From Eledone cirrhosa (lineage: Eukaryota), in contig OZ024742.1 in NCBI GenBank assembly GCA_964016885.1, positions 75,020,001 to 75,084,000 of the forward strand: a DNA stretch of 64,000 nucleotides, in the 5' to 3' direction. Under the pieces are notes generated by a model. That model was not told the DNA's origin. It saw nothing but the letters and a program-made list of their open reading frames with translations, and searched no databases. Of this stretch, positions 3,613 to 59,152 are shown piece by piece; within the stretch, counting starts at the first letter, position 1, and each line of letters starts with the position of its first letter. The position numbers and the translations under genes were made by a program.

Positions 3613-3646
3613 GTGGTCTTTCCCATCTTTTCCACTCCATTTCAAC

Positions 3647-6600: not shown

Positions 6601-6987
6601 TTGCCAGTTCGGGATAAACTCTACATTGTTTATGACTCGTGAGTTTATGTCGAACACCTGCTGTCACGTGTAGGATGGATCCAGCTATCAGCTGAGTCCA
6701 TCGTGAGGATTACCCCGCCCTCCTCCTTTAGCCGGGAAGGGCAGGCAGTTTTTATCTGTCTGGCGGTGGCCATGGCGAAAGAGATAGTATGGTGGACACG
6801 TTTGAAAGGGCTGAAGACGAGTACTTCCCTCTTCGGTGATGCCCTGATTAACTTTTTCAAATTTCATTTGAAAAGGAAAATCAGAGTAGAGAGGGAAGTG
6901 CTCTCTTCCCAGCATTTTGTTGAAAGATGGGTGAGAGAAGCAGGAATGGCCCGAGTGAATGGGCCTTCTCTGAGTATGTATCTGTAA
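3647..6987 (+). pseudogene. ORF2 of copy A: APE endonuclease + reverse transcriptase; C-terminal CCHC deleted; frameshifts and stops
   Basis: AISETR, VYAP, GDWN, SYLDR, TDH (APE); GPGYWKLN; LINFDQSKAFDRV, VRQGCPLS, YADD (RT); ~87-bp deletion at 6624/6625. Confidence 0.92.
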
Positions 6988-7483
6988 ATTAAAGGTGGAA
7001 AACTGGGAGAGGGCACTTGCCCTGGTGGTCAGGGTCACTGTTGCTTTTTAATGGGCTTTCTCCATGATTGTCCCTCGGAAGTCTCACCCCTATTGGGGAA
7101 TTTTTTCATTGTTCTATTATTTCATCCTCTGTTTCTTGTTTTTTACACGCAGAAATGCCCATTTGTACCGCCCTGTATTGTCCTGTACTGTCCTTAATGT
7201 CTACTTTATGTAAACCCTTGTGGTTAATAAAGAAAACATTATTATTATTATTATTATTATTATTGAATGCTATGGTTGACGGAGGCTCGGCTCTGTAAGG
7301 TATTATAAATTTTGAACACTATAACAATTGTAAATTGTTTAAAACTTTAACGAACTTGTAGACAAAAACACCCTCCCCCTCGTGAGAGGGATCTTTCTGC
7401 CCGTTATTTGGCCCTTCGGGGTTAAATAACTGCTTATTGGGGTTTTGTACCTAATATTTATTTTAAACAAAAAAAACAACAAC

Positions 7484-9576: not shown

Positions 9577-9611
9577 GTGGTCTTTCCCATCTTTTCCACT
9601 CTATTTTAAAC

Positions 9612-12600
9612 ATGACCTCACTCAGAATAGGCAGCATAAATGCGCGTGGCTTGGGGTCGTCATGGAAGCAGGGTCACCTGCTCAACGACCTCAGGTCACT
9701 AAACATAGATGTAGTGGCCATCAGCGAGACCAGAATCTCCGAAGCACGGGCCTTCGCACCGATCTTCGGCGGCTACAATGTGTACGCATCTCCCAGCCGT
9801 CCGGGATCGGGGGGGGGGAGGAGTTGCTGTGCTTTTTCGGAGAGGTTTGGATCTCGCCATACGGGCCATCTTCCTGGACCCAGAGTGTAAGCTGGTGGTG
9901 GTGGACGTGACCAGCGGAGACGGGCAAGCTTTCAGGCTAGTGGCCGTCTATGCCCCGACAGGAGCAGGGCGGCCTGATTTCTTCCGGCGTCTGGAGACCT
10001 TTCTTGGAACGTCCCGCCCTTTAGTGTTAGTGGGCGACTGGAACGGGATCTTAGATGCACGCTGGAACTGTGTGGGATTAGCGGTTAGGGGTGGACGGTG
10101 CAAGAGCCTCACCAACCTGCTCAAGCGTTTTGAACTGTCTGACAGGTACCGATTGGATTTGCCGAATGTGCCAATGTGGACTTGGACAAATCGTATAGGG
10201 TCATCCAGATCATATCTAGATAGAGTATTTTGTAGGGAAATAGATAGGTCTAGCATAGGCTGTCCACAATTCAAGATAGTCAGCTACACGGACCACAAAT
10301 TCGTGATCTGTGTGCTTGACTTAGATAGGCTTCATAGACGAGGACCCGGCTACTGGAAGCTAAACGCGTCCTTACCAGCGCGCAAGGCCTACAGAGACCG
10401 GATTAGCGAACTAGTTAAGCGGGCGTTGACGGGGGGCCATCGTCAACAACAAGTGGTGGTTTGCTTTGAAAAGAGCGATTAGAATAGAATCCATTAGGTT
10501 TAGTAAGGCTTTAGCAATAGAGAAAAATAGAGCAGAGGGAGAACTAGTTAGAAAATTAGACGAGGCGCTTAGCAAAGGCATTGCGACCGACGTGCTTGCG
10601 GCGAAATTGGCCCTTGACCAATTCTTCAATGCAAAGCACGAAGGCTGCGTTGTCAGAGCTAGGGTGCGTGCTCTCAGACACGAGGGGACGAAAGCCGTTC
10701 AATGGGCCCGAGTGGCGGAGGCGCGTCGTGGCAACAAAGCCACGATCCGGTCTTTGGTGGACCACGACGGGCGCATGCTACTCGATCCCGGGCAAATGTG
10801 TGAAGCTTTTCAGCGACACTTCGCTCAGCTGTTCGGGGGCAGCGGTGGGCCGGGTAGAGGGATGGACTTTAGTGTCTACCTCGACGGACTGCCGCGGCTC
10901 TCGGCCACTGAGGCGAAGTGTTGCGAAAAGCCGATAACAGCCGCTGAAGAAAGGGAGGCAATGACTGGCTGCACAAGGGGTAAATCGCCTGGTTTGGATG
11001 GTCTGCCCTATGACTTTACGTACAGATGCCAGACTTGTTCGGAGGCCTCTTGGCGGACGTCTACTGCAACTGGCAACAGAACGGGAGAATTCCCAGTTCT
11101 GTGAGCCGAGGAGCGGTGGCACTGCTGAGAAAGGATCCGAACAAGGGGGATAACATAGACAATTTCCGGCCCATAACTCTGCTAAACACAGAGTTCAAGA
11201 TTTTGGCCAAGGTGCTAGCAAAGAGGTTGGCGCTTGTCGTTGGTGGTCTGGTGGGAGAGGCGCAGACATGCGCCATTCCCGACAGATCCATCCACGACAA
11301 CCTCCACCTCATGCGATACATCATAGAGAGGGTAGCTAAGGAACCTGGGACGGGTGGGTCCTTGATCAATTTAGATCAGTCGAAAGCTTTCGATAGGGTC
11401 GACCATCGTTACCTAGCGGCAGTCGTGAGGGCGGCTGGCTTTGGGCCCGTCTTCAGAGGCTGGATCGCTGCCATGCACAGCGACATCTGCTCTGTGGTGA
11501 GGGTGAACGGTCACCTGTCGGAACCGTTCAACATCATGCGCTCGGTCCGCCAAGGATGTCCCCTCTCGTCCCTCTTGTACGTATTGACTCTCGAGCCATT
11601 ACTGCACAAACTGGAGACGTTGAGGGGAGTCCCGCGCGAACTAGGATGCGGAAGATCCGTGTCAGCATATGCGGACGATGTCACCGTAGTGGTGTCGAAC
11701 GCCAAACACATCGAGGCGATCGGCACTACACTAAGAGAATACGAAGCGGTGACAGGAGCAATGATCAACCAGGAAAAGTCAGTGGGCCTGCAGCTCGGCA
11801 CCTGGAGAGGCAGGTCCATGCCGTCCAACAGCGTCGTCGGGCGCTGGATGGACGGACCGGTTAAATTGCTAGGGGTCTGGTTCGGTCCGGACCTCCAGAC
11901 GGACAAAAACTGGGACGAGGTGACGAGCAGGGTGGCTTCTCTCACCCAGAAATGGGCGGAGAAGAAGCTATCCCTGAAAGGTCGAGCGGAGGTGGCTAAC
12001 GCGTACATCGCGTCTGTCATCTGCTACCGCCTAACCGTCGTACCTTGTCCTAAGCCTCGCCTGACTGCGCTGGAGCGTTTGCTCTTTCGCTTTTTGTGGA
12101 AGGGACGTGCTCCGATGGTCAGGCGGTCCATCTGTTGTCAACACCCGCTACGTGGAGGGCTGGGCATGCCGTGGCTGATGATGCGCAGGCACGCGCTCAG
12201 GCTACGACATCTCCACCTCTTCCTCGACGGTGATCAGGTGTGGTCGCCGTTTGCTAGACGCGTTTTTCCCCAGCTCGTTTCCTTGACGGAGCTGCAGTCC
12301 TGGGTCAAGCGAAGACGGAGAGGGAGCGCCTGGAGACTGGAATGTCTTCAGGCGCTCACAGCCCTCCACCAATCGGGCAATGTGATCGGTGGAAACTCCA
12401 CTTCGGCGTTCTATAGAGGATTAGTGGAGGGGAAGAGCGACGACGTACTTGGGGAAACTCTAGGCGTCGACGAAAATCAACTAGCCAATCTCTTCGGAAG
12501 AACTTTCGGGCCAGGGCCTATGGACAACTTCCAGAAATCTCTGGCCTGGCAGTGCTACTGAGGAGCCTTGCCAGTTCGGGATAAACTCTACAGGCATGGA

Positions 12601-13035
12601 GGTGCCGTCAGCCGGGCATGTCCGAGATGCGCGCAGGGCGACGAAACCGTCCTGCACGCACTCGTCCAGTGTCCGAAAATTGCTGACTTGTGGGTTTATG
12701 TCGAACACCTGCTGTCGCGTTTAGGACGGATCCGGCTATCATCTGAGTCCATCGTGAGGATTGCCCCGCCCTCCTCCTTTAGCCGGGAAGGGCAGGCAGT
12801 TTTTATCTGCCTAGTGGCCATGGTGAAAGAGATAGTATGGTGGACACGTTTGAAAGGGCTGAAGACGAGCACTTACCTCTTCGGTGATGCTCTGATTGAC
12901 TTTTTCAAATTTCATTTGAAAAGGAAAATCAGAGTAGAGAGGTAAGTGCTCTCTTCCCAGCATTTTGTTGAAAGTTGGGTGAGAGAAGCAAGAATGGCCC
13001 GAGTGAATGGGCCTACTCTGAGTATATATCTGTAA
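9612..13035 (+). pseudogene. ORF2 of copy B: APE + RT + C-terminal CCHC zinc finger, few lesions
   Basis: MTSLRIGSINARGL start; KSPGLDGLP; RT motifs in 11026..12561; CPRC..ETVLHALVQC; stops at 12559 and 12943, frameshifts near 9810, 10431, 11010. Confidence 0.93.
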
Positions 13036-13292
13036 ATTAAAGGTGGAAAACTGGGAGAGGGCACTTGCCTTGGTGGTCAGGGTCATTGTGGCTTTTTACT
13101 GGGCTTTCTCCACAAATGTCCCTCCGAAGTCTGCCCCCTATTGGGGAATTTTTCATTGTTATTTTTTGTTACATCCTCTGTTTTTGTTTTTTACACGCAG
13201 AAATGCCCATTTGTACCGTCCTGCATTGTCCTGCACTGTCCTTAATGTCTACTTTATGTAAACCCTTGTGGTTAATAAAGAAATCATTATTA

Positions 13293-13330
<38 letters not shown>

Positions 13331-16300
13331 GGTCTGGTCTGACGTCTTTTTGCTCGCTCCCTGTAAGTCGCTTTATTTACCTGTTATAATTATTTGTTGT
13401 TAAATTGTTCTCGTTGTGTAAGGGATATAAGCCCTTGGAGTTTGCCCTGTGAAGGGGAAAGTATAACATTTGGGCATTTTAGCCCAAATATTTGAACATT
13501 TTACTTCTAAAAATAAAAAAAAACAAGGCTAAGCCCCCCCTCCCCCCAGCAATATGTCTGCTGCGCTCTGACAACGGTGTAAAAGTTGAGAGGAGGGTTA
13601 CAGAAATTCATACAACAGACACCACGACAAACAACGCGAACAAAGACAGCAACACTGAGAACACTAATTTTGAAAAAATTACCACACCAACTACAACAAT
13701 AACAGCGTCAACCAAAATACAGACAACAGAAAATAATGACAACAAATGCAACAACGATATTAACACCACTAACAAGAAAATAAACAACGACAACACCAAC
13801 AACAACAATACAAATTGCACCGAAAACAACAACAACGGTGGCACCAAAAACATAACCAACTACAACAGTGAATACAGCAACAACACCAACAACACCGTTT
13901 GTAGCAATAGCAACAGCAACATCACCAACAACAAAACCAGTAGTAGGAGTAGCAACAACAACAGTACCAACAACAAGACCAGTAGCAGCAGTAGCGGCAG
14001 CATAATGGTGCCGCTGAAAATGGGGCCACTTCTTTCGCAGGTGTGGCCCGAAATATAGAGACAGTGTTAGTCACGGAGGAGGAGATGGCAGTAGCAAGAG
14101 CCATCGTGTCGAGAAACGACAATAGATTTTCCCTGAAACCTCACCCGTTTTCTTCAAAGACCAGCAGCTGCACACGGTGACTTACCGCACCGTAAGCAAA
14201 ATGTCACATCGGGTGGAGAGAGCCACAGACGACAGCCAAGTAGAGGGACCCCTCCTTCTGACGCCTGATCCGCTGCTACCAAGAGCAGGGCAGGCAACAG
14301 AGGCAGAAGACCCTTCCATGGTGAGTAGGAGGGCAACGTCCGTGGCACCCATACCAAGGCCACAGACAACTAAATCAGCGGCAGCAGTGGCGGGAACACC
14401 AACAGTCGCAGTAGCTACACCGGTAGAAAAATCACCGGAGCGGGCTCCACTACCACCACCAACAGCAGTGGAGCTCATACCCCTCCCAGACGCCACGGAA
14501 TCCGTCATGGAGTATGAGGCGGGAGGGAAGTGGCAAACGGTCTGCCACAAAAAACAAAAAACAAAAATACCGTTAGCTTCACCTTCCAAAAGCGAAGGGA
14601 AATAAAGAGAGGTAAAGGCTGCAAGGAGACTTGCAGCAACACCACCACCATCACCACCACAAGCATCACCACCAACAACAACCACACCACTACCAGCATC
14701 ACCAAAAACAGCAACATCGCAAACACCACAAAGCACACACACCCTACAGCAACAACAAGAAAACAGCAACAAACCACCCCTCTCCCCCCAAAAATACACA
14801 GCCATAAACATGGCAAATAAAGAACTCTTACAACATATAAAGCAGCTCACAAAGATCACAGAAAAAAATGACTACACCCTACCAACACCAAGGACTCTCC
14901 CGAAAAATATAAGCATCAATGACAACTTTTAAAAGAAAAATTTCCCAACGCATTTGGATACTTCAGAGGGTCGGTTACCAAGAGGATATACACCGACATT
15001 CTCTTGGAAACACCCATGACCAGCCAAAGGGACGGTTCTACTGTCCCTTCACCAGACGATCAAGGTAAGTGATCCTTTCTTAGTTACCCCGTTTCTCATC
15101 CAACATGGCCGTACTTAGAATAGACAGTGTAAATGTACGTGGTCTGGGGTCATCTTGGAAGCAGGGTTACCTGCTCAACGACCTCAGGTCACTAAACATA
15201 GATGTGGTGGACATCAGCGAGACCAAAATCTCCGAAGCACGAGCCTTCGCACCGATCTTCGGCGGCTACGATGTATACGCATCTCCCAGCCGTCCAGGGT
15301 CGGGGGAGGGTTGCCGTGCTTTTTCAGAGAGGCTTGGATCTCGCCATACGGGCCATCTTCCTGGACCCAGAAGGTAAGGCGTGGTGCTGGACGTGATCGG
15401 CAGCGAAAGCAATGCTTTCAGGCTAGTAGCCGTCTACGCCCCAACAGGGGCAGGACGGCCAGATTTCTTCAGACGTCTAGAGACCTTTTTTGGAACGTCC
15501 CGCTCTTGGAACGGTATCTTAGATTCACGCTGGAATTATGTGGGCCTAGTAGACAGGGCAGGAGGATGTAAAAGCCTCAACAACCTGATCAGATGTTTTG
15601 TACTGTCTGACAGGTATAGACTGGATTATCCGAATGTGCCAAAGTGGATATGGGCAAACCGCATCGGATCATCCAGATCGTATTTAGGGTAACAGATTCT
15701 GTAGGGAAACAGATAAGGCTAGTGTAGGTTGTCCACACTTTAAAGTAGTCGACTACACGGACCACAAATTTGTGATCTGTGAAGTTGACTTAGATAGACT
15801 CCATAGGGCCCGGCTACTGGAAGCTGAACGGCTCGTTCCCGGCGCGCAAAGCTTACAGAGACCGGATTAGCGAATTAGTTAAGCGTGCGTTGACGGGTGT
15901 GGTCGTCAACAACAGGTGGTGGTTCACCCTGAAAAGGGCTATTAGAGTAGAATCGATAAGGTTTAGCAAAGGAGTAGTGATAGAGGAAAATAGAGTAGAC
16001 GGAGAGTTAGTTAGAAAGCTTGAAGAGGCGTTTAGGACAGGCATCGCAACCTACGTGCTTGCGGAGAGATTGGCACTCGACCACTTCTTCAACGCAAAGC
16101 ATGAAGGCTGCCTTGTCAGAGCTAGAGCGCGTGCTTTAAGACACGAGGGCACGAAAGCCGTTCAATGTGCCCGGGGGGTGGAGGTGCGAGGTGGCAACAA
16201 ATTCACAATTCGGTCTTTGCCCGATCAAAACGGACGCATGTTTCTCGAACCCGAGCAGATGTGTGCGGCTTTTCAACAGCACTTTGCTCAATTGTTCGGG

Positions 16301-19300
16301 AGCGGCGGCGGGCCGGATCGGAGTATGGACTTCGGTGCATACCTCGGCGGACTGCCGCTGCGAAAAGCCGATAACAGCAGGTGAAATACTGGAAGTGATG
16401 TCTGACTACACGAGGCGTAAATCGCCAGGTTTGGATGGTCTGCCCTACGAGCTTTATGCGTATATGCCAGACTTGTTCAGCGACCTCTTGGCAGATGTCT
16501 ACTGAAATGGCAGCAAAGCGGGAGCATTCCTAGTTTTGTGAGCCGGGGAGCGGTGGGGCTGCTGAGAAAAGACCGGAACAACGGGGACGTTATAAACAAC
16601 TTCAGGCCCATAACTCTGCTAAACGCAGAGTATAAGATTTTGGCCAAGGTGTTAGCAAAGAGATTGGCGCATGTCGTCGGTGAACTGGTGGGAGAGGCGC
16701 AGACATGCGCCATTCCGGACTGATCCATCCACAACAACCTCCATCTCATGCGATACATCACAGAGAGGGTGGTTAAGGAATCTGGCAACTTGGATCAATC
16801 TGAAGCATTTGATAGGGTCGACCATCGGCACCTGGCTGCGGTCCTCGAGGCGGCAGTCCTCGGGCCCGTTTTTAGGGGCTGGATCGCTGCGATGCACGGC
16901 GAGATCTGCTCGATTGTGAGGGTGAATGGTCACCTGCTGCAGCCTTAAGCATCATGCGCTCGGTCCGACAGTGTTGCCCTCTCTCGTCCCCCGTGTACGT
17001 AGTGGCCATCGAGCCGTTACTGCACAAATTAGAGACGATGCAGGAGATCCGTGTCAGCTTACGCCGACGATGTCACCGTGGTGATGTCGAGCACCAAACA
17101 CGACCAGATGCTCGAGACCGCTGTCAAGGAATACGAAGCGGTGACAGGAGCAAAGATAAACCAGGAAAAGTCGGTGGGCTTGCAGCTCGGCACCTGAAGA
17201 GGCAAATCCATGCCGTCCGGCAGCGTTGTGTGCCGTTGGACGCAAGGACCGGTTAAATTGGTCGGGGTCTGGTTCGGTCCGGACCTCCAGATGGAGAAAA
17301 ACTGGAGCGAGGTGACGAGCAGGGTGGCCTCTCTCACCCAGAAATGGGCTGAGAGGAGGCTGTCTCTGAAGGGTTGGGCGGAGGTGGCGAATGCGTACAT
17401 AGCGTCCGTCATCTGCTACCGCCTGACCGTCGTACCTTGCCCCCGCCCAACTCTGATCAAATTGGAGCGCCTTCTCTTCCGCTTTTTGTGGAAGGGACGT
17501 ACTCCCATGGTCAGACGATCCATTTGCTGTCAACACCCGTTGCGTGAATGACTAGGCATGCCGTGGCTGATGATGCGCAAACATGCGCTGAGGCTGCGAC
17601 ATCTCTGGTGCTTCCTTGACGGTGAACAGGTGTGGTCGCCGTTTGCCAGACGCGCTTTTCCCCAGCTCGTCTCCTTGACGGAGCTGCAGTCCTGGATCAG
17701 GAAAAGACCAAGGGATAGCGCTTTGAAGTTGGAATGACTCCAAGCGCTCACCGCCCTCTACCAGCTGGGCACTAGTATCGGTGGAACATCCACCTCGGCG
17801 TTCTATAGAGGGTTAGTAGAGGGAAAGAGCGACGACGTTCTCGGGGAGACCCTGGGCGTCGAAGACGATCAGCAGTTCGCTCTCTTTAAGAGAACCTTCA
17901 GACCGGGGCCTATGAACAACTTACAGAAATCCCTGGCCTGGCAGTACTACCGGAGAGCGTTGCCGGTTCGGGATAAGCTCTATTGGCACGGAGGTGCTGT
18001 CAGCTGAGCCTGTCTGAGATGCGCGCAGGGCGACGAAACCGTCCTGCACGCACTCGTTCAGTGGCCGAGGATTGCTGACTTGTGGAGTTGTGTCGAACAG
18101 CTGCTGTCTTCTCCTTCTTCTTTTCTTTGATTCAGCTCAGGCGCCTGAGGGTCCTCCTCAGAAGCACTAGAGATGCGACTGGGAGACGGAATAATTCATC
18201 TAAGGATGTGCCGAGTTGGTGATGGTATCTCTCGATCGCCAATGCAGAGGACATGTAGAGCAAAAGAGGGGGGAGGGGGTCTGAACGAATTTTTGCATGG
18301 CAGATTTGACATCGGCGAATGGAGATCGCTGCAGGACGGATGGTAGGCACGACATTATTCCCCCGACAGAAGCCACACACTAAGTCTTGAGGACTCTTTT
18401 TCTGTATTCGAGTCAGGCTTCTGCAGATCCTGTGGAAGATATGTCGGCAAATCGAGCAGGAAATGGGCACGAAGTCTTGTCGGATCTTCCTGGAACATCC
18501 CGCGCAGGATGGGTCAGGGTTCGACTCGACATCACCCGCCATGAGAACTTGCGGAGATGTAGGGCGGGTCTTACAGCTCTGCTTGTCGACCCCCCCCCCC
18601 CCCAAAAAAAAACGGCGTGTCTCCCACGTCGCATCTCTGGGTGTATACAGATCCGAATTTGACAGATATCCTTTCGGGAATCCGACCGAGCAAACCGGAC
18701 GTCCACGAAGGCCGCCACACGAGTAGGTTCCAGATTCTGGTTTGTGCTCTGTCACCACAGGTGTTATTGTCAATACCGCCGCCGCTGTTGCTACCTCTAT
18801 TGTTGTTAAATGCAACAATATCATCCACTTCTCGACCGCTGCTTGATGACGAAGAGAACGAAATGGTTTTCGCCTGACATTTACTGTGTGGCGATGACGA
18901 ACACAGCTGTTGTCTCGTGTAGGACGGATCCGGTTATCGACTGAGTCCATTGTGCAGATAGATCCGCCCTCTTCCTTTAAAGAGGAGGAAGGGCAGGCAG
19001 TTTTCATCTGCCTGGTGGCCATGGCGAAAGAGATTGTGTGGTGGACAAGGTTGAAAGGGTTGAAGACGGACACTTTCCTCTCCGGCCAATCCCTGATTAA
19101 CTTTTTCAAGTTTCACTTGAAGAGGAAAATCAGGGTGGAGAGGCTAGTAAGTTTGTTGAAAGGTGGGTGAAAGTTGCGAGTCTGGTCCGAGTGAACGGGC
19201 CCGCTCTGAGTATACGCCTGTAGACTGAGGAGTGGGAAAAGTGAGAGAGGGCTCTTGCCCCGGTGGTCAGGGTGGCCGTGATCTTTTGTGTGGTTTTCAC

Positions 19301-30630: not shown

Positions 30631-31118
30631 TACTAATAATAATAGTAACAGAGTAAATAACAATAAAATGCAAATGACAAGAACAAAACGAAAAAAACTA
30701 AAACAAACACTAATGTAAAAAACCCACATAAACAACAAACAAACGAAACATAGAAAACGACAGCCATGTTTTTCTAGCAAAACATTGTTTACTGTTTCCC
30801 ATTTAATATTGAACTTAAGGCAAGTTTTCATATTTTATATTAGGTGAGTGACTAATTATATTTCAATTGTGGTGGGATGTGTGTTGGCGGTTTAGTCTTC
30901 TAATTCTGTTGAGGAATGGCTTATTTGGGGAGAGTAAACAGCAACAGTTTGCTGAAATCATTTAATTCGGGATTTGATGACGTTTTAACTCATGGTTTGT
31001 GGGTATTTATTTATTTATTTATTTATTCCTTTATTTATTTATGGTTTGTTTTTCGTGACATCAAAACCAAACCAGGAGAAAGGAATAATATTTAGATGGA
31101 GAATTTCAAAATGTTGTC

Positions 31119-33135
31119 ATAATAATTATTTCTTTATTAACCACAAGGGTTTACATAAAGTAGACATTAAGGACAGTGCAGGACAATACAGGACGGTACA
31201 AATGGGCATTTCTGCGTGTAAAAAACAAAAACAGAGGATGTAACAAAAAAATAACAATGAAAAATTCCCCAATTCAGCCCTTTCAAACGTGTCCACCATA
31301 CTATCTCTTTCGCCATGGCCACCAGACAGATAAAAACTGCCTGCCCTTCCCGGCTAAAGGAAGAGTGCGGGGCAATCCTCACGATGGACCCAGATGATAG
31401 CCGGATCCGTTCTACACGCGACAGCAGGTGTTCGACATAAACCCACAAGTCAGCAATTTTCGGACACTGGACGAGTGCGTGCAGGATGGTTTCGTCGCCC
31501 TGCGCGCATCTCGGACATGCCCGGCTGCCCGCACTTCCATGCCTGTAGAGTTTATCCCGAACTGGCAAGGGTCCTCGGTAGCACTGCCAGGCCAGAGATT
31601 TCTGGAAATTATCCATAGGTCCCGGCCCGAAAGTTCTCCCGAAGAGATTGGCTAGTTGATTTTCGTCGACGCCTAGAGTTTCCCCAAGTACGTCGTCGCT
31701 CTTCCCCTCCACTAATCCTTTATAGAACGCCGAGGTGGAGTTTCCACCGATAAAATTGCCCGATTGGTCGAGGGCTGTGAGCGCCTGAAGACATTCCAGT
31801 CTCCAAACGCTCCCTCTCGGTCTTCGCTTGACCCAGGACTGCAGCACTGTCAAGGAAATGAGCTGGGGAAATACGTGTCTAGCAAACGGTGACCACAACT
31901 GATCACCGTCGAGGAAGAGGTGGAGATGTCGTAGCCTGAGCGGGTGTCTGCGCATCATCAGCCACGGCATACCCAGCCCTCCACGTAGCGGGTGTTGACA
32001 GCAGATGGACCGCCTGACCATCGGAGCGCGTCCCTTCCACAAAAAGCGAAAGAGCAAACGCTCCAGCGCAGTCAGGCGGGGATTAGGACAAGGTACGACG
32101 GTCAGGCGGTAGCAGATGACAGACGCGATGTACGCCTTAACCACCTCCGCTCGACCTTTCAGGGATAGCTTCCTCTCCGCCCATTTCTGGGTGAGAGAAG
32201 ACACCCTGCTCGTCACCTCGTCCTAGTTTTTGTCCGTCTGGAGGTCCGGACCGAACCAGACCCCTAGCAATTTAACCGGTCCGTCCGTCCAGCACCCGAC
32301 GACGCTGTTGGATAGCATGGACATGCCTCTCCAGGTGCTGAGCTGCAGGCCCACTGAATTTTCCTGGTTGATCATTGCTCCTGTCACCGCTTCGTATTCT
32401 CTTAGTGTAGTGCCGATCGCCTCGATGTGTTTGGCGTTCGACACCACTACGGTAGCATCGTCCACATATGCTGACACGGATCTTCCGCATCCTAGTTCGC
32501 GTAGGACCCTCCTCAACGTCTCCAGTTTGTGCAGTAATGGCTCGAGAGTCAATACGTACAAGAGGGACGAGAGGGGACATCCTTGGCGGACCTAGCGCAT
32601 GATGTTGAACGGTTCCGAAAGGTGACCGTTCACTCTCACCACAGACCAGATGTCGCTGTGCATGGCAGCGATCCAGCCTCTGAAGACGGGCCCAAAGCCA
32701 GCCGCCCTGAGGACTACCGCTAGGTAACGATGGTCGACCCTATCGAAAGCTTTCGACTGATCTAAATTGATCAATGACCCACCCGTGCCAAGTTCTCGAG
32801 CTACCCTCTCTACGATGTATCGCATGAGGTGGAGGTTGTCATTGATGGATCTGTCGGGAATGCCGCACGTCTGCGCCTCTCCCACCAGACCACCAACGAC
32901 AAGCGCCAACCTCTTTGCTAGCACCTTGGCCAAAATCTTGAACTCTGTGTTTAGCAGAGTTATGGGCCGGAAATTATCTATGTTATCCCCCTTGTTCGGA
33001 TCCTTTCTCAGCAGCGCCACAGCTCCTCGGCTCACAGAGCTGGGAATTCTCCCGTTCTGTTGCCAGTTGCAGTAGACGTCCAGCAAGAGGCCTCCGAACA
33101 AGTCAGGCATCTGTACGTAAAGTTCATAGGGCAGC
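31119..33135 (-). mobile_element. 5'-truncated Tx1-clade copy F (A/B subfamily) with a deletion spanning the ORF2 end and part of the 3'UTR
   Basis: ORFs 32592..33143, 32223..32561, 31167..32216 near-identical to copy B ORF2; junction near 31273 joins ..AAAGGGCTGAA to TTGGGGAATTTTT. Confidence 0.92.
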
Positions 33136-36100
33136 CTTTCCACGTCCCGGTTCGAGCGAAATGCCCTGCAACAGCTCCATCTTCCGCAGTAAAGGCTCGA
33201 GAGTCAATACGTACAGAAGGGAAGAGAGAGAGCCCCCTTGAGGGACCTATCGGGAGAGCCGAAATGGTTCCGAGAAGTGACCATTAACCTTGACCACCGA
33301 GCGTGTGCCGCTGTGCATTGCAGCGATCCAGCTTCTGCAGACAGGGTCGAAGCCAGCTGCTTTGAGGACAAACTCCAGATACCGATGGTCGACCCTATCG
33401 AATGCTTTCGATTGATCTAAATTGATCAGTGCTGACCCGAAGCCAGGTTTACAACCTACCCTCTCTATGATGTATCGCATGAGGTTGAGATTGTCGTGTA
33501 TGGACCTGGCAGGGATTGCACAAGTTTGCGCCTCCCCAACCAAGTCCTCGTCGACAAGCGCCAATCTCTTTGCTAACACCTTGGCCAAAATCTTAAAATC
33601 TGTGTGAGCAGAGTTATAGGCCTGAAGTTGTCTAATGTATCCCTCTTGTTCTCGTCTTTCCTTATCAGAGTCACCACTCCCCGGCTCACAGAACTGGGAA
33701 TACTACCATTCTGATGCCAGTTGCAGTAGAGTGCTTCGAGGAGTTCGGAGAACAAGTCTGGCATATTTACGTAAAACTCGTAGGGCAGGCTATCTAAACC
33801 GGGTGACTTGCGCCTCATGCAGCCGACAAGGGCGTCCTGAATTTCAGCTGAAGTAATCGGCCTTTCGCAGCGCTCAGCGTCGACCGTCGAGATGCGCGGC
33901 AAGCCGTCAAGGTAGGGACTGAAATTCGCTACTCTCTCTGACTCGCCACCCTCCCCGAACAACAGAGCAAAGTGCTGGTGAAAGGCCTCACACATCCGCT
34001 TGGAATCGCTTATCTCGTGTCCGTCTCGGTCCGCCAAAGACCGAATTGTGGTTTTATTACCACGCTCCGCCTCCGCCACGCGGGGCCATGGAACAGCTTT
34101 AGTTCCCTCGTTTCTCAGCACACGCGCCTTAGCTCTGACAATGCAACCTTCTTGTTTCGCATTGAAGAAATGGTCTAATGCCATTCTCACCGCTAGCACG
34201 TCAGTTGCAATGCCACTACAAATAGCCTCGTCTAACCTATCTACCACCTCCTCCTCCTTTCTATTTTTCTCTAACGCTAGTTCTTTGCTGAACTCTATCG
34301 AAGTTACTCTAATCTCTCTTTTGAGAGCCCCCCTACCATCTGTTGTTGATGATCCCCCCTGTCAACGTTTGCTTAACTAAATTGTTGACTCGGTCCCTGT
34401 AAGCCTTACATACCGGAAATGGCATGTTCAGCTTCCAGTAACCCGGTCCCAACCTACGCGTTTTATCTAGGTCGACTATACAGATCACACATTTGTGATC
34501 TGAATAGGCGACCGTTTTAAAAATTGGGCAGCCTACACTATTTCTATCTATTTTCCTAATGAAATCCTGTCTATATACGATCTAAATGACCCTATGCGGT
34601 TGGTCCACGCCCACACTGGCGCATTGGGGAAATCTAGTCGATACCTGTCAGACAGTTGGAACTGGCTGATTAGGTGCTTGAGGCTTTTGAACCCCCCGCA
34701 CCTATCAGCTACTCCCACACAATCCGAGCGTACGTCTAAGATGCGGTTCCAGTCCCCCGTTAACAGTAGAGGGCGAGACGTACCCAGAAAGGTTTCCAGG
34801 CGCCTAAAGAAGTCCGGTCGTCCGGCCCCAGTAGGGGTGTAGACGGCCAGCAGTCTAAAGGCACCATATTCGCTACTGTTCACATCCAGGACCACCAACT
34901 TACCGTCCGGGTTCCGGAAGATCGACCTTACCTCGAGACCCAGACCTTTCCTAAACAGCACTGCAACGCCAGCTCCCATTCCCGGCCTGTTAACAGATGC
35001 GAAGATCTGATAGTCGTCGAAAATGGGGGTTAGTGCGCGCGTGTCGGAAATCCTGGTCTCACTGACGGCAATCACATCCATTTCCAGAGAGCTCAGTTCG
35101 TTGGCAGGTGACACTGCTTCTAGGGTGACCCCAGGCCGCGAACATTTAAACTTCCTACTCTTAATATGGTAATGTTGGCAAGCTAAAAGAGAGAGGGTAG
35201 GTTTACTTATCTCCCGGGGTTTTGTGAAGGTCGGGTGGTTCGACCTCCATAGTTGGTGGGGTTTCTTTTGGGAACCCCTTTAAAAGTCTCCATGTGGATT
35301 TCACATTCGGGGTTCCTACGTCTTGAGGAAAGCTCTCTCGAATTTCTTTGTAGGAATCGAGCGACATTCGCACCAGAAGCAAATCTTCTGGCACGCAAAA
35401 TGTGTTCAATTCAAAGATCTCCCCCTCTGTTTGGATGTCCTCGCTTCGTGCTAAGAGGGCCATCAATTTATCGTTGGCCCTTCTCACAAGTTTTTAATGT
35501 TTTGTTGGTGTGGTTTTATTTGTTTTCGTTTTGGTAACTGTGGTGGTGATGGTTTTGGTGGTGTTTTTTCGGGTATGTCTGTGTTTGTTGTAGGTTTTGT
35601 GTCTGCAATTTCAGGTGTCAGTGTGTTTATTTGTTCTTGTGTTTGTTTAGGTTGTTTGCTTTTCGGGGATTGTGGGGGTGGTGTTGATGTTGACGTTGGT
35701 GTTGATGTTATTGGGGAAGTGTTTGTGTTAGTGGTGTCTGTATTTTTTGTTGTGTATGATTTTGTGTTTTGTTGGGGCTTTATTTTGGCGAGTTTTCTCT
35801 TTTGTTTTTTGGTACTTTTGGGTTTTCTTTCATCTTCACGGCTGGTAGACAAAGGGTCTGTGGCTGTGAGTGTATCTGTGTCTGTGTGTGCATTTATTGT
35901 TTTGTCTATGTGTAAAATTTGAGGGGTAGGGGGAGTGGGAGAGCTTTCCTCGTTTTCCCCTTGTATTGGTTTCGGTACTGGTGGTGGTCCGACTGTTTTT
36001 GATGTTGGTGGGGTTACCCGTGTCATTGTTGGTGTTGCTTTTGGTGGTGGTGGTGCAGCTTTCCCTGCTGACACTGGCGTTGGCAACAAAGGAGGTTTGC

Positions 36101-36960
36101 GACCCCCTGCATTTTTGAGCTGAGGGCAGAAGGCTTGCAGAATCGTTGCTTCCCCGCAGACGAAGCAGTGCGGTCTTCTTCCCTCAGTGATTAATAGGAT
36201 TGTTGTCCCGTCCTGCAGGCGGGCTAAATCCGGTATGTTGTTGATTTGGAGAAGAATCTCCAAATCCATTCCGGACCAGTCTTCTCTCTCTGTCCTTTTG
36301 ATATCCAGGAGGGTAGTGTCTGTCCCTTCCTCGATTACGCATCCCAGGAGCCATATGTTCATTCTTGGTGGGATCCTGGGAATGCGGAACTTTACTGTCC
36401 TTTTGCCCATGTAGGACGGGTGCATGATAATGCGTTCCGTTCTGCAGGGGGTCACCGAGTGCTTAATAGCAAGGGCCTCGGTTTTGAACAGTACCGAGAT
36501 AGTACCGAACTGCTTGACCCTTGCTTTGTACTCGATGTCACTTCCGATGCACTTTAAAGCAGCCTCAATCTCTGCTTGGCTGGTGATTTCCACTTTGCCT
36601 GTCTGCACTGAAATGCATCGAATGTACACCGTCCTCCTTTGCGTGGCCTCTATTGCCCCGTCCAGGATGGTTAGGTTAGCCCAGGACTTCTCCCGTTTAA
36701 TTAACCTCCACGGCTGGAACAACTGTTGTTCCTTATCGCTAATATCTACATTGAAGAAGCGCTTTGTGCTCGCTGTTGCCGCTGCAAAGGTGGCGCCTCC
36801 GTTGCTCTTCTTGTTGGTGTTGTCGTTCTTGCTGTTGTTGTTGTTGTTTTGTTTGTTGTTGCTGTTGCCACCGCCATCAGTGTTTACAGTGAGGCTGTCG
36901 GTGTTATTGTCGTTGTTCTGAGTTGTTGTTGTGGTGATGGTGATGATAATAGTAATAATA
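33136..36960 (-). mobile_element. Tx1-clade copy D (distinct subfamily): ORF1 + APE + N-terminal half of RT, truncated at both ends
   Basis: ORF1 35484..36986 and 35203..35487; APE 34548..35114; RT 33573..34247 and 33247..33588; ends just before YADD. Confidence 0.88.
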
Positions 36961-36968
36961 ATAATAAT

Positions 36969-39273
36969 GCTTTCGTTATTAACCACAAGGTTTTACACAA
37001 AGTGAGACATTAAGGACAGGAGAGGACAATACAGGACAATACAGGACGGTACAAATGGGCATTTCTGCGTGTAAAAAACAAAAACAGAGGATGTAATAAA
37101 AAAGGGACAATGAAAAATTCTCCAATAGGGGGCCACCGTGGAGAAAGCCCATTAAAAAAAGACACGGTGACCCTGACCACCAGGGCAAGTGCCCGCTCCC
37201 AGTTTTCCACCTTCAATTTACAGGCACATACTCATAGTAGGCCCATTTACTCGGGCTATTCTTGCCTCTCTCACCCATCTCTTAACAAAATGCTGGGAAG
37301 AGAGCACTTCCTTCTCTACGCTGATTTTCCTTTTCAAATGAAATTTGAAAAAGTTAATCAGGGCATCACGGAAGAGGTACGTGCTCGTCTTCAGCCCTTT
37401 GGGACGCGTCCACCATACTATCTCTTTCGCCATGGCCACAAGACTGATAAAAACTACCTGCCCTTCCTGGCTAAAGGAAGAGGGCCGGGCAATCCTCGCG
37501 ATGGACTCAGCTGATATCCGGATCCGTTCTACACGCGACAGCAGTTGTTCGACATAAACCCACAAGTCAGCAATGCTCGGTCACTGGACGATTGTGTGCA
37601 GGATGGTTTCGTCGCCCTGCCCGCATCTTGGACATGCCCGGCTGAAGGCACTTCCATGCCTATAGAGTTTAACCCGAACTGGCAAAGCTCCTCGGTAGCA
37701 CTGCCAGGCCAGGGATTTCTGGAAATTGTCCATAGGCCACCGCCCGAAAGTTCTTCCGAAGAGATTGGCTAGTAGATTTTCGTCGACGCCTAGAGTTTCC
37801 ACAAGTACGTCGTCGCTCTACCCCTCCACTAATCCTCTATAGAACGCCGAGGTGGAGTTTCCACCGATCACATTGTCCGATTGGTAGAGGGCTGTGAGCG
37901 CCTGAAGACATTCCAGTCTCCAAGCGCTCCCTCTCGATCCTCGCTTGACCCAGGACTGCAGCTCCGTCAAGGAAACGCGCTGGGGAAAGACGCGTCTAGC
38001 AAACGGCGACCACACTTGATCACCGTCGAGGAAGAGGTGGAGATATCGTAGCCTGAGCGCGTGTCTGTGCATCATCAGCCACGGCATACCCAGCACTGCA
38101 CGTAGCGGGTGTTGACAGCAGATGGACCGCCTGACCATCGGAGCACGTCCCTTCCACAAAAAGCAGTCTGGCGAGGCTTAGGACAAGGCACGACGGTCAG
38201 GCGGTAGTAGATGACGGACGCGATGTACGCATTCGCCACCTCCGCTCGACCTTTCAGGGATAGCTTCCTCTCTGCCCATTTCTGGGTGAGAGAAGCCACC
38301 CTGCTCGTCACCTCGTCCCAGGTTTTGTCCGTCTGGAGGTCTGGACCGAGCCAGACCCCTAGCAATTTAACCGACGCTGTTGGATGGCATGGACCTGCCT
38401 CTCCAGGTGCCGAGCTGCAGGCCCACCGACTTTTCCCGGTTGATCATTGCTCCTGTCACGGCTTCGTATTCTCTTGGTGTAGTGCCGATCGCCTCGATGT
38501 GTTTGGCGTTCGACACCACTACGGTGACATCGTCCGCATATGCTGACACGGATCTTCCGCATCCTAGTTCGTGCAGGAACCCCCGCAACGTCTCCAGTTT
38601 GTGCAGTAATGGCTCGAGAGTCAATACGTACAAGAGGGACGAGAGGGGACATCCTTGGCGGACCGAGCGCATGATGTTGAACGGTTCCGAAAGGTGACCG
38701 TTCACTCTCACCACAGAGCAGATGTCGCTGTGCATGGCAGTGATCCAGCTTCTGAAACGGGCCCAAACCCAGCCGCCCTCAGGACTGTCGCCAGATAACG
38801 ATGGTCGACCCTATCGAAAGCTTTCAACTGATCTAAATTGATCAAGGACCCACCCGTGCCAGGTTCCCTAGCTACCCTCTCCACGATGTATCGCATGAGG
38901 TGGAGGTTGCCCTAGATGGACTGTCTGGATTGGCGCATGTCTGCGCCTCTCTTACCAGACCACAAACGACAACCGTCAACCTCTTTGCTAGCACCTTGGC
39001 CAAAATCTTGAACTCTGTGTTTAGCAGAGTTATGGACCTAAAATTATCTATGTTATCCCCCTTCTTCGGATCCTTTCTCAGCAACGCCACCGCTCCTCTG
39101 CTCACGGAGCTGGGGATTCTTCCGTTCTGTTGCCAGTTGCAGTAGACATCTGCCAAGAGGCCTCCGAACAAGTCTGGCATCTGTACGTAAAGTTCATAGG
39201 GCAGACCATCCAAACCAAGCGATTTACCCCTTTGCAGCCAGTCATTGCGAACTAGTTAAGCGTGCCATCGTCA
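36969..39273 (-). mobile_element. 5'-truncated Tx1-clade copy G with a short 5' inversion
   Basis: RT/CCHC homologous to copy B; ATT tail at about 36947-36968; 39247-39273 is ORF2 sequence in the opposite orientation. Confidence 0.92.
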
Positions 39274-44850: not shown

Positions 44851-45061
44851 GCTCACCGACATCCAGAGTTGACATTGCACTCAGTGCTCCTTTGGGAGCC
44901 CCTACATGGACACACTAGAAGAGGAAGACCAAGGTTAACATATGTTGATGCCCTAAGGACAGACACTGGTGTGTTGGAGATGCAGGATATGGCAGCGATA
45001 ATGAGGGACAGAGACCGCTGGAGAGAACTCGTCCATGGATCTCGGGAATTTTACCCGCCTT

Positions 45062-45063
<2 letters not shown>
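44851..45063 (+). mobile_element. 3' end of an RTE/RTEX-like LINE in (TA)n
   Basis: [29 protein letters not shown]; the stop TAG is directly followed by (TA)n. Confidence 0.8.
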
Positions 45064-45103
<40 letters not shown>

Positions 45104-45204
45104 ATGTATATATAATGTATTTTGCAATACACTTTATGCTTAATTAAAAGCATTTTGAAGACCGTAAGCTATTGTTTTAAAGTAGTGACAAATTCACTCA
45201 CTTT

Positions 45205-45297
45205 GATCTCAGCAAACAGGGGAGATAAACCGACAAGACTTGTTTCGCTTTGGTTGAAGCTTATCAAGGCCAACTACCCCACCTGTTTACTGAGATC
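45205..45297 (-). ncRNA. Type I hammerhead ribozyme, U3-A8 core variant
   Basis: Reverse complement of 45675-45767. Confidence 0.85.
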
Positions 45298-45674
45298 ATT
45301 GATGTTATATTCTTATAGAAATCTAGTAAATAATCAGGAGCTGATTATGCAGAGCGGTTGTTGGTCAGGCAGAAATTAAAAATTAGAATTGGAGCTCTGA
45401 AATAGCAATATATATATGGATGTATATATAATGTCCCTGTTTGCTGAGATCAAAGTGAGTGAATTTGTCACTACTTTAAAACAATAGCTTACGGTCTTCA
45501 AAATGCTTTTAATTAAGCATAAAGTGTATTGCAAAATACATTATATATACATCCATATATATATTGCTATTTCAGAGCTCCAATTCTAATTTTTAATTTC
45601 TGCCTGACCAACAACCGCTCTGCATAATCAGCTCCTGATTATTTACTAGATTTCTATAAGAATATAACATCAAT

Positions 45675-45767
45675 GATCTCAGTAAACAGGTGGGGTAGTT
45701 GGCCTTGATAAGCTTCAACCAAAGCGAAACAAGTCTTGTCGGTTTATCTCCCCTGTTTGCTGAGATC
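45675..45767 (+). ncRNA. Type I hammerhead ribozyme, U3-A8 core variant; predicted cleavage after GUC at 45740
   Basis: GGCC-TTGATAA-GCTT-CAACCA-AAGC-GAA-ACAA-GTC-TTGT-C-GGTT, plus a long distal stem I GATCTCAG..CTGAGATC. Confidence 0.87.
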
Positions 45768-45899
45768 AAAGTGAGTAAATTTGTCACTACTTTAAAACAA
45801 TAGCTTACGGTCTTCAAAATGCTTTTAATTAAGCATAAAGTGTATTGCAAAATACATTATATATACATCCATATATATATTGCTATTTCAGAGCTCCAA

Positions 45900-45930
<31 letters not shown>

Positions 45931-48379: not shown

Positions 48380-48748
48380 AGATGTTTTCGCAGTCACAAT
48401 CAGCACTGGTATCTACACTCTATCATGCGAAGAAGGGCCACGGTGATTTGACCTGTCCAGTTCTTGATGTTGGATCAATATTTTCTTTACCTTATCTTCG
48501 TTCTGCCTCAATGTGCCCTGAAAGATGGTTTTAGACATGGAAACGTGCAGGATACACGGCAAGATTACGTCTTGTTATCATAGCAAGGAGTGGCCCCTGT
48601 CTACCAGTATATTTGTTGACTTGCTGCCTGAGAAAACTGTTTGTCACGTGCTCTGTGTACAGGATGTGTGGCAGACTTCTGATGCACTTGGGTTTTGACG
48701 TCAGGATTCTTTGTTCCACGTCGGCTGTAAGAGTCTAGCTTTCACACA
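48380..48748 (-). mobile_element. RTE (BovB-like) LINE 3' relic
   Basis: EQRI..KC.R.L.HILYTEHVTN..LRQQV..G.Q.PLL..RR.L and TI.QG (RTE C-terminus). Confidence 0.7.
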
Positions 48749-49112
48749 CAACTGCCGGACTTTGAAAACAGGTGAAGATATATAATTTTTTCGTCTGTGT
48801 AAATGAGGTGATTAATCTTATTTGCATAAGTTAGATCAACTTAACATAGAGTAGAATTAGAATTTAGCTTCGAAAATAGCTGTATACAAATATGGCTTTC
48901 TAAATGTTTATTTATAAACATACCACATTTCTTTAGAAATACGAAATTCAAATACATATTTGTATACAGCTATGTTCAAAGCTAAATTCTAATTCTATTC
49001 TATATCAAGTTGAGCCAGTTTATACAGCTTCATGTGCAAATGAGATTAATCACCTCATTTACACAGATGAAAAACCTATATATTTTCACCTGTTTTCAAA
49101 GTCCGGCAGTTG
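48749..49112. mobile_element. Foldback/MITE-like element with ~145-bp imperfect inverted arms
   Basis: CAACTGCCGGACTTTGAAAACAGG .. CCTGTTTTCAAAGTCCGGCAGTTG; central part duplicated again at about 49232-49329. Confidence 0.7.
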
Positions 49113-49346
49113 CAAGAGCGGGAGAGATTGTCATAACGGGAACCAGTTGAGTTCGAAATACATCAATAATTGTTCCCCTTGCTTCTGCCGAGCACCGCTT
49201 GGTGACGTTAACTGTTAGTGTCATTCATAGGTATGGCTTTCTAAATGTATATTTATAAACATATCGTATTTATTTAGAAATACGAAATTCAAATACATAT
49301 TTGTATACAGGTATGTTCGAAGCTAAATTGGGGTCCCGATTCTTTT

Positions 49347-53491: not shown

Positions 53492-53821
53492 TTATCTACG
53501 GAACAGGTTTGATTTTGAAATTTAAATGTGTCTAAACATCACGGCCTTTTGCCAATACAGTTCGTCTCCGTTGATTTATTATTTTAAATCGATATGGACA
53601 AACTGTAGTATAATAATTAGTATACTTCAATCTGGCTAAATTTTTCTTTTGCAATATATATACAGATGTGTTGGTATCTGTGTTTCATCACTTACATATT
53701 AATTTATATATATATATATGTATATATAGTGTATTTTGAAATACACTGCATGCTTGATTAAAAGCATTTGGAAGACCTTACGCTATTGTTTTAGAGTAGT
53801 GACAGTCTCACTTACTTAAAA

Positions 53822-53914
53822 TTTTCATCAAACAGGGGAGATAAAGCTGACAGAACTTTGTTTCGTACTTTTTGGTACTTATCAAAGCAAACTACTCCAC
53901 CTGTTTGCTGAAAA
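53822..53914 (-). ncRNA. Type I hammerhead, U3-A8 variant, core intact
   Basis: Minus strand: GCT-TTGATAA-GTAC-CAAAAA-GTAC-GAA-ACA-AAGTTC-TGT-C-AGC. Confidence 0.82.
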
Positions 53915-54206
53915 ACATGAATGTTTGATTCTTATAGAATTCTAGTAATAATCAGGAACTGATTATACAGAGCGGTTGCCGGTCATGCAGAAATTGAAAA
54001 TTAGAATTGGTGCTCTGAAATAGCGATATATATATATATATATGAATGTATATATAGTGTATTTTGCAATACACTGTATGCATAATTAAAAGCATTTCGA
54101 AGACCTTACGCTATTGTTTTATTTTCAATTTCTGCTTGACCGGTAACCGCTCTGTATAATCAGTTCCTGATTATTACTAGAATTCTATAAGAATCAAACA
54201 TTCCTG

Positions 54207-54303
54207 ATTTTCAGCAGACAGGTGGAGTACTTAGCTTTGATAAGTATCAAAAAGTACGACACAGACCTCTGTCAGCTTTATCTCCCCTTGTTTGCTGAAA
54301 ATT
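54207..54303 (+). ncRNA. Type I hammerhead, U3-A8 variant with GAAA>GACA (probably inactive)
   Basis: AGCT-TTGATAA-GTAT-CAAAAA-GTAC-GAC-ACAG-ACCT-CTGT-C-AGCT. Confidence 0.75.
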
Positions 54304-55149
54304 TAAAGTAAGTGAGACTGTCACTACTCTAAAACAATAGCCTAAGGTCTTCGAAATGCTTTTAATTAAGCATACAGTTTATTGCAAAATACACTATATA
54401 TACATTCATATATATATATATCGCTATTTCAGAGCACCAATTCTAATATATATATATATATATATATAGATGAGAAAATACTGTAATACATTGAAATATT
54501 TGATAAATGAAATGCAATGGAACACGTGAAAATGGGACAAAACACAAACAGGGGGGACAGCAGAGAAACAGCAAACACAAATGGGACACTAGATGAACAA
54601 CAACCATAAATGGGACAGTACAGAAACAACAAAAACAAATGGGACAGTAGGGAAAAAACAAACACAGTAACAATGAATAATTCCGATCTTCAGTTGACTC
54701 CTCTAAACTCACTGTTTTTCACCAAGTAAACAATGGACAAACCATAGCTTAGAGTCCTACAACAACGAGACATCCAAATTAGGAAAGCGTCGTTCGGAAG
54801 TGATGAACAGCTCGGGGGAGAAAATGCTGTGTGCGGACGATGTACAAGCAAGTAAGCTAGACAAACATGGATATTTAAATAAATACCTGGAGTAAAATCA
54901 TAGGGAGGCCGGAACAAAAGTGTTGTGATACGAAGATTAAACAATCGAGGATTTGACTTAGAAGATAAATAATACAACATAGAGAGTATAATGCTAGAGG
55001 AAGAATAAGGAGGCCTCGAAATATGGCTGTGAAGATAGAAACTATAGAAAAGCTACTGTCAGATGTTACAGAGAAAAAGGGGAAATAATCGTGTATATAC
55101 ATACACACAAATCTCTCTCTTTCCGGTTTTTATTATAGACTACCTTTTA

Positions 55150-55309: not shown

Positions 55310-56100
<791 letters not shown>

Positions 56101-58689: not shown

Positions 58690-59152
58690 TTCTCTAGACC
58701 AGCAGTCACCCATGCATATCTGTCTCCCTTCTCCACGCCACAGGCGTCGTCCAAGGAAAAAGCAAAATCTAATACAACTTAGCACCAGTGACGTCGCAAC
58801 TCATTTCTACGGCTGAGTGAACTGGAGCAACGTGAAATAAAGTGAAAATTGTGAACGGCTGAGTGAACTGGAGCAACGTGAAATAAAGTGAAAATTGTGA
58901 ACGGCTGAGTGAACTGGAACAACGTGAAATAAAGTGAAAATTGTGAATGGCTGAGTGAACTGGAACAACGTGAAATAAAGTGAAAATTGTGAACGGCTGA
59001 GTGAAGTGGAGCAACGTGAAATAAAGTGAAAATTATGAACGGCTGAGTGAACTGGAACAACGTGAAATAAAGTGTTTTATTCAAGGACACAATTCATTGC
59101 CCGCTCGGGGACTCGAACTGACAACCTCACAATTGTGAATCGAATTCTCTAA
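58690..59152 (-). mobile_element. Second tRNA-derived SINE family (CORE-like body) with an internal 46-bp tandem amplification
   Basis: Box B AGTTCGAGTCCC near 59108-59119 (-); ~5.8 copies of a 46-bp unit at 58809-59074. Confidence 0.7.

Follow-up and report, generated by a model that had tools for sequence, protein, structure and literature searches.

The Insertion and Its Hammerhead

The locus under study is a single two-armed insertion in the window, by which we mean the whole 64,000-nt stretch of DNA that was analysed. It consists of an inverted arm of 1.09 units and a direct arm of 1.49 units, with (AT)n on each side. Self-comparison and the insertion survey described below place the direct arm at 45435–45906 on the plus strand, where it is 5′-truncated at unit position 161 and carries a tail at its 3′ end. 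A complete unit of 316 nt lies within this arm in natural phase (45591–45906, plus strand), with about 33% GC and without a long reading frame; a 316-nt period had been proposed in an earlier note on this DNA and was recovered here. From the insertion alignment the last 26 nt of the unit (45881–45906, plus strand) form a tail that is present on one arm only and is followed by (AT)n. A hairpin with a GCAA loop (45841–45856, plus strand; GCCA in families C and D) lies just upstream of the tail-less end. The inverted arm (45092–45434, minus strand) runs with its tail-less end into (AT)n and carries a hammerhead at 45205–45297. This hammerhead is identical to that of the direct arm, as the earlier note had it, but it is not an independent copy, being part of the same insertion. 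The left flank of the insertion, 44905–45062, ends in (AT)n and is presumably the 3′ end of a LINE of the RTE type. The same sequence also follows a family G copy at another locus (L251).

The hammerhead of the direct arm spans 45675–45767 on the plus strand and belongs to family A (the subfamily labels A–G were coined in the present analysis). Its layout, its folding and an Rfam match identify it as type I with a long distal helix I. The 5′ strand of stem I (GGCC, 45701–45704) leads into the core TTGATAA (45705–45711), read as U3 U4 G5 A6 U7 A8 A9; the U3–A8 covariant is apparent from the sequence itself, from its conservation and from covariation. Helix II pairs 45712–45715 with 45722–45725 around a CAANNA-type loop, CAACCA (the whole element being 45712–45725, backed by covariation and pattern counts), and is followed by GAA (45726–45728). 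Helix III (45729–45739) pairs ACAA (45729–45732) with TTGT (45736–45739); it is a near-perfect palindrome, which in folding could pair between two units. The GUC triplet (45738–45740) is followed by the 3′ strand of stem I (GGTT, 45741–45744), and hammerhead numbering places the predicted cleavage site after 45740. All of these plus-strand elements were found at the positions first proposed for them. The stem I sequence GGCC/GGTT is correct for the window copy but does not represent the family: a C-to-T change at 45743 (plus strand), which both arms carry, is specific to this insertion, and most family copies read GGCT, as do contigs of runs X1, X4, X5 and X6. The change turns a G-C pair of helix I into G-U and should thus weaken helix I in the window copy.

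The three helices surround a conserved core with the open end at helix I, which is the type I arrangement. A NUH triplet is present together with the A15.1–U16.1 pair, which is A-U in all 24 copies aligned. Conservation extends to the CAANNA loop II and to the internal loop of helix I, between which a tertiary contact might form. Site-specific self-cleavage of this hammerhead is predicted from its sequence. The segment 45675–45767 was more stable than its shuffled versions (z = −6.6; none of 200 shuffles was equally stable). A search with Rfam hammerhead models, which the earlier note had called for, did return a match to Hammerhead_HH9 (RF02275) at 45691–45761, but its 23.9 bits fall below the gathering score of 52. 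The E-value of the match was 0.03 when 12 kb were searched and 6e-4 when 251 nt were searched. HH9 too is of type I topology, and its loop II is of the CAANNA kind. Since the sister family D, with its canonical core, reached only 25.1 bits against the same model, the low score is not owed to U3–A8 alone.

Two relatives of the unit lie elsewhere in the window. Subfamily B is present as another two-armed insertion, with about 83% identity, at 53706–54447 (no single strand assigned); it has U3–A8 cores at 53820–53915 (minus strand) and 54207–54303 (plus strand). A separate insertion of subfamily C, about 72% identical, occupies 55314–55634 (likewise unassigned) and has its U3–A8 core at 55461–55467 (plus strand). 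An older element of inverted and partial-tandem structure with 341-nt spacing was seen at 48700–49330, including a decayed hammerhead-like hairpin at 49102–49193. LINE frames in which endonuclease and RT motifs are recognisable cluster on both strands of the window at 1600–16400 and 31100–37000. A tandem array of a 46-nt repeat (58809–59074) is perhaps part of an octopus SINE.

Copy Number and Subfamilies

An exact U3–A8 core pattern with helix II mostly free had 4,257 matches in the genome (G000, 3.0 Gb) and none in the reversed control; our pattern counts refer to ribozyme motifs, not to insertions. The C3–G8 version of the pattern gave 2 matches, and freeing positions 3 and 8 gave 4,350. 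The expectation that CUGANGA-based searches would miss the family thus held in this genome, where a high-copy ribozyme class escapes both CUGANGA descriptors and Rfam thresholds. A separate pattern designed for families C and D had 451 matches genome-wide. The search with family A gave 165 matches at the 40 candidates scored, mostly 92–100% identical, in arrays of up to 26 units.

The units are 316 nt long, within the range of about 150–450 bp, occur in arrays of 1–26 and carry a type I hammerhead each. The unit is non-coding, its longest stop-free stretch having fewer than 90 codons, and its GC content of 33.5% is below 50%. Neither flanking repeats distinct from the unit nor long terminal repeats were found at the surveyed family A insertions. 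By these testable features the element is a non-LTR retrozyme, one family of an abundant superfamily that was amplified recently. The retrozyme-type family with a U3–A8 hammerhead that the earlier note had suspected is in this way supported by copy number and by arrays of up to 26 units, as well as by the covariation and core conservation reported below.

Family D has a canonical CUGAUGA core, was found in the flanks of examined loci and is the sister of C; these two families offer a natural pair for measuring the cost of C3–G8 versus U3–A8. An unrooted tree of 21 natural copies was a ladder, ((C,D),(B,(E,(E′,(A′,A))))). Family A was the youngest among the copies sampled, at 0.5% from the column majority versus 2–5% in the others. 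Neither the tree nor diagnostic sites, with 2 C copies past the filter, root the direction of the change between C3–G8 and U3–A8. The old family G has a U3–A8 core in most copies read and is marginally alignable to the others (64% over about 100 nt). Its members (L248–L272) are mostly 74–88% identical to the query copy, with a CAAUAA loop and an 8-nt palindromic helix III. Some family G copies have ATGCAAAT upstream of the ribozyme, a sequence that we take to be octamer-like.

The 26-unit array (L135, G000:C1:293635236-293643461) contains a block of 6 units in duplicate, so that copies have also multiplied at the DNA level once inserted. In the flanks of ten loci (L005, L009, L016, L022, L034, L038, L040, L056, L070 and L078) we noticed at least six other C3–G8 hammerhead families with palindromic helix III, some in inverted pairs or at 466-nt tandem spacing. 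To judge from such motifs, the genome holds many ribozyme-bearing repeats. Contigs of four of the six runs listed (X1, X4, X5 and X6) hold relatives of the unit. Those of X4, X5 and X6 (organisms B, C and D) include near-identical stretches, the best pieces being about 95–100% identical; depth was low for X5 and X6, and the stretches could come from trace DNA as well as from related hosts.

Covariation and Core Conservation

We aligned 24 natural copies from four subfamilies. In this alignment 97.1% of the cells were paired as compared with 32–46% in slid controls, although the copies were hand-chosen, six per subfamily, their kinship inflates the counts and the structure was taken from one of them. 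Changes on both sides were seen in 13 of the 25 pairs, again counts that rest on few lineages. The tertiary pair 3–8 was UA in 18 copies and CG in 6. This agrees with the earlier view of U3–A8 as a tolerated natural covariant; it is known from nature and has been reported to be active in vitro (PMC3088659).

Helix II was fully paired, judged by eye, in 91 of the first 100 listed matches (of 4,257) with eight different stem sequences, where three of the four pairs were free in the pattern and the copies of a tandem do not count as independent. In subfamily C the basal pair of this helix is an A-A mismatch. Among the first 100 of the 451 C/D matches, 76 were C3–G8, 15 U3–A8, 6 C3–A8 and 3 U3–G8. 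Thus, 91 of them have a Watson–Crick 3–8 pair and nine are single changes on a D background.

When subfamilies are compared in primary sequence, 54 of 70 and 79 of 107 columns are conserved in other parts of the unit but 45 of 93 in the ribozyme region, the least conserved part. The core positions of the ribozyme, for which the earlier note had expected conservation in a family alignment, are invariant or nearly so. None of the 31 variants common to the units of an insertion struck the core, and 2 of 148 private variants did. Helix III varies in sequence and in length (8–13 nt) and keeps its self-complementarity: of 21 haplotypes found at two or more loci, 17 were fully self-complementary in helix III and 4 had one mismatch. 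A self-complementary helix III is a signature of hammerheads that work as dimers (PMC4209133). The compensatory conservation of the ribozyme suggests that cleavage is needed. Of 14 distinct changes shared within loci 4 were A>G, and of 148 private changes 11 were A>G and 18 were T>C, which gives no signal of an A-to-I editing footprint.

Predicted Folds of Monomers and Dimers

The layout is that of a type I hammerhead, as first described, but the minimum-energy monomer fold of the window copy is a different, non-catalytic one. There the 5′ half of helix III is paired with C2.1-U3-U4-G5; the active fold is 5.0 kcal/mol less stable. For all 14 copies folded, among them the canonical D, the active monomer fold came out 2.8–7.9 kcal/mol higher than the minimum, and in most of them positions 2.1–5 paired with the 5′ half of helix III. 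For the circular monomer the inactive alternative had a predicted probability of 0.96. A cleavage assay of the window copy as a monomer could give a false negative.

The double hammerhead was 6–15 kcal/mol more stable than two single hammerheads in all eight natural dimers folded. It was still above the unconstrained minimum in all eight, by 0.2–6.6 kcal/mol in seven and by 27 in L242. As nearest-neighbour models ignore tertiary contacts and the folding included no known-active control, we treat the double-hammerhead picture as a prediction. The helix that locks the inactive fold averaged 4.48 bp versus 4.10 bp in shuffles (p about 0.04) among 21 related haplotypes, three of which break it. 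We regard its conservation in these models as a lead only.

Insertion Structure

To characterise the insertions we used 40 of family A, which were the best matches to the query, so this sample is biased to full units. Their 3′ end is fixed and their 5′ end variable. Of the 40 insertions, 29 are two-armed, with an inverted 5′ arm. In 20 of these 29 the two arms stop at different places, unit position 316 and unit position 289–290, which leaves the 26-nt tail on one arm only. The second arm ends elsewhere in the remaining nine, and all 11 single-armed insertions end at the tail. A cruder test found the one-arm tail at 10 of 28 loci of family B and at 3 of 24 of family D. Tailed and tail-less ends mostly run into (AT)n, with exceptions that include L014, L019, L025, L028, L163 and L167. 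A target-site duplication of about 10 bp was seen at L014; at most loci it would be masked by (AT)n. Truncated 5′ ends fell in unit positions 148–175 in about 10 of 69 arm starts where about 6 were expected (counted by hand), so an excess at the cleavage site was not significant.

Inverted 5′ arms, a tail at one end and microsatellite targets are marks of PLE insertions according to PMC8557442 and its preprint. The retrozyme insertions carry this signature; the 26-nt tail is slightly below the published range of 30–40 bp (PMC8557442).

Copies that share one 3′ end and are truncated to varying extents at the 5′ end bear a signature of retrotransposition, and this speaks against regarding the hammerhead as a dead relic whose carrier, a satellite or MITE-like repeat, is spread as DNA. 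Such a relic would fit the HH9 score below threshold, the competing fold and the low primary-sequence conservation of the ribozyme region between subfamilies. With changes that are compensatory and a core that is invariant or nearly so and spared by all 31 locus-shared variants, we consider it very unlikely. Mobilisation by a LINE (RTE or L1/Tx1-like) rather than a PLE might be suspected in a window so rich in LINE frames, the more so as the element at 44905–45062, in whose (AT)n end the insertion lies, is apparently an RTE-type LINE. This we find hardly credible. The fixed end of the 40 family A insertions showed neither poly(A) nor a 3′ end in common with a LINE, and the one-arm tail is both described for PLEs (PMC8557442) and present in the PLEs of this genome.

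Arms are often longer than one unit and run through the cleavage site. Each of three lineage variants tends to be in all units of an insertion or in none. Variant 93C was in all units of 8 insertions, in none of 23 and mixed in 0; the corresponding numbers were 7, 22 and 2 for 95G and 5, 25 and 2 for 144A. The three sites pooled gave 20 all, 70 none and 4 mixed. One template variant per insertion is as expected from the copying of one monomeric circle. Against this, the overall distance within loci (1.2%) was only modestly below that between loci (1.6%).

Our preferred reading, to which we give a probability of roughly 0.7, is that the repeat is a 316-nt non-coding tandem unit with a U3–A8 type I hammerhead whose tandem transcripts self-cleave, whose monomers circularise and whose circles are copied by a PLE into (AT)n. 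The tandem transcripts would likely cleave mainly as double hammerheads, as the folds predict, and the monomers would be circularised after cleavage. The reverse transcriptase and GIY-YIG endonuclease of the PLE would then probably copy the circle into (AT)n microsatellites, and rolling reverse transcription of one monomeric circle, a mode proposed in PMC7229834, would produce arms of more than one unit. From the patterns described here we infer that the RNA is cleaved, circularised and reverse-transcribed in rolling fashion, and also which element serves as its partner; the best candidate partner would be the L116-type PLE discussed below.

The same element and PLE helper could also operate on an uncleaved linear multimer derived from homogeneous master arrays. 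The 26-unit array with its 6-unit higher-order repeat makes DNA-level amplification and multimeric transcripts plausible, and the predicted folds disfavour the active state. Yet the unit-specific variants of the arrays at L135 and L175 were not seen in order at other loci of the same lineage, the compensatory changes that keep the ribozyme imply a need for cleavage, and circles are the form in which the related RNAs of coral, mussel and axolotl accumulate (PMC7229834). We therefore hold a linear template to be improbable.

PLEs of the Genome and a Candidate Helper

The genome has 10,596 GIY-YIG candidates, several with RT and GIY-YIG frames, and the homologues of the PLE proteins carry names from bivalve molluscs, which points to a mollusc-like host. 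PLE insertions show the same tail pattern as the retrozyme, with tails of about 62 and 40 nt. At 20 loci with pLTR copies of the L116 type, 15 had the tail only, 4 a tailed and a tail-less end and 1 was unclear. The L116-type PLE is autonomous and young, its 40 best copies being 98–100% identical, and it matches RT and GIY-YIG. It has a U3–A8 minimal hammerhead of its own and ends before (AT)n in a heptamer of the same seven bases as in families A and B, a shared sequence that is short and AT-rich. Its youth, its U3–A8 hammerhead and this heptamer make it the best candidate helper, although the evidence is thin. One such young PLE with two pLTRs lies at L116:2278-7450 (G000:C1:145868500-145877500), and L117, L121, L123, L125 and L127 are alike. 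PLEs of the L110/L133 and L122/L128/L132 types also have U3–A8-type cores, the latter type with a changed GAAA box.

BLAST of the unit against the sampled PLE terminal repeats gave no similarity. Nor was the unit found as a PLE terminal repeat beside an RT-GIY-YIG frame in the same orientation among the loci examined, a small part of the 10,596. This bears on the notion that the unit is the pLTR of an autonomous PLE yet to be found and the copies are its 5′-truncated ends. The PLE-type ends would suit that notion, Xenopus retrozymes resemble pLTRs (bioRxiv 10.64898/2026.07.22.740005), and our search scored 150 of the 10,596 candidates and examined 49 loci. We nevertheless judge it quite improbable, because what lies upstream of the unit is another unit, an inverted arm or unrelated DNA. 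The unit model matched 3 of 69 PLE-anchored loci (L087, L126 and L195); the one inspected more closely, L087, proved to be an insertion in its own right, located beyond the (AT)n in which the PLE terminates. Conversely, PLE protein matches occurred at 10 of 201 retrozyme-anchored loci. Seven mapped loci and L047 lack a pLTR arrangement (L043 and L044 lay outside the mapping), and the hammerheads of this genome's PLEs are short, minimal and of unrelated sequence.

A more specific scheme would have the U3–A8 core as ancestral, as it is also found in the old family G, with D reverted to C3–G8, the circle self-locked by the pairing of positions 2.1-U3-U4-G5 with helix III, cutting confined to tandem transcripts in double-hammerhead form and the intact circle copied by one identifiable young PLE that shares the 3′ end. 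We put it forward tentatively, as rather doubtful. If it were true, the self-lock would explain how animal retrozyme circles escape cutting themselves, and a retrozyme–PLE pair could be named.

Head-to-head arms with one tail at L161/L274 were considered as a co-integration of retrozyme and PLE and rejected on age: identity to relatives does not exceed 91% for the PLE arm but is about 98% for the retrozyme arm, so their ages differ. At L241/L273 (near 1937-1939 of L241) the body of an L126-type PLE and an E-type retrozyme arm, the latter with its 5′ end, meet at a microhomology of 3 bases, which could reflect either a switch of template or attachment on the 5′ side of a copy that was already there.

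Relation to Known Ribozyme Elements

The closest description is that of animal non-LTR retrozymes from coral, mussel and axolotl (Cervera and de la Pena 2020, PMC7229834; compared here with its available text). As in the present family, these are tandem units of 150–450 bp with one type I hammerhead each, GC below 50%, no coding capacity and co-occurrence with PLEs. The present family differs in its U3–A8 core and its palindromic helix III of 8–13 nt. Its frequent inverted 5′ arms and one-arm tail were not found reported in that text. The published retrozymes have been seen as circles; for the present family, expression and cleavage are predicted.

Vertebrate retrozymes have been described as non-autonomous derivatives of PLEs in a July 2026 preprint (bioRxiv 10.64898/2026.07.22.740005), which puts them in the same class with the same proposed helper. 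The study covers 31 vertebrates, 3 insects and 1 coral, and no mollusc. Its case for PLEs is built on co-occurrence and pLTR homology; ours is built on insertion structure, and no pLTR homology was found. One of nine predicted Xenopus retrozyme dimers cleaved in that study, a low rate that we count against the self-cleavage reading here.

The hammerheads of Schistosoma Cercyon PLEs (PMC4209133) show the same U3–A8 covariation and a palindromic helix III pointing to dimers. Those motifs, about 1,300 in number, are minimal, heterogeneous and mostly single; the hammerheads described here have full helices, a CAANNA loop II and tandem units. Thus, U3–A8 hammerheads in PLEs and the dependence of retrozymes on PLEs have each been published, separately. 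In the literature texts available to us, the mobilisation of retrozymes by PLEs and the copying of monomeric circles lack direct genomic support. The tail-and-inversion signature of PLEs, the single template variant per insertion and a candidate helper of the same age, all seen in this genome, make the PLE-helper and circle-template models directly testable.

We found no description of the present family or of a U3–A8 retrozyme in the literature, the supplements of PMC7229834 and of the 2026 preprint being places where some may be listed. Among cephalopods, the giant squid genome paper reports 235 uncharacterised Hammerhead_1 matches.
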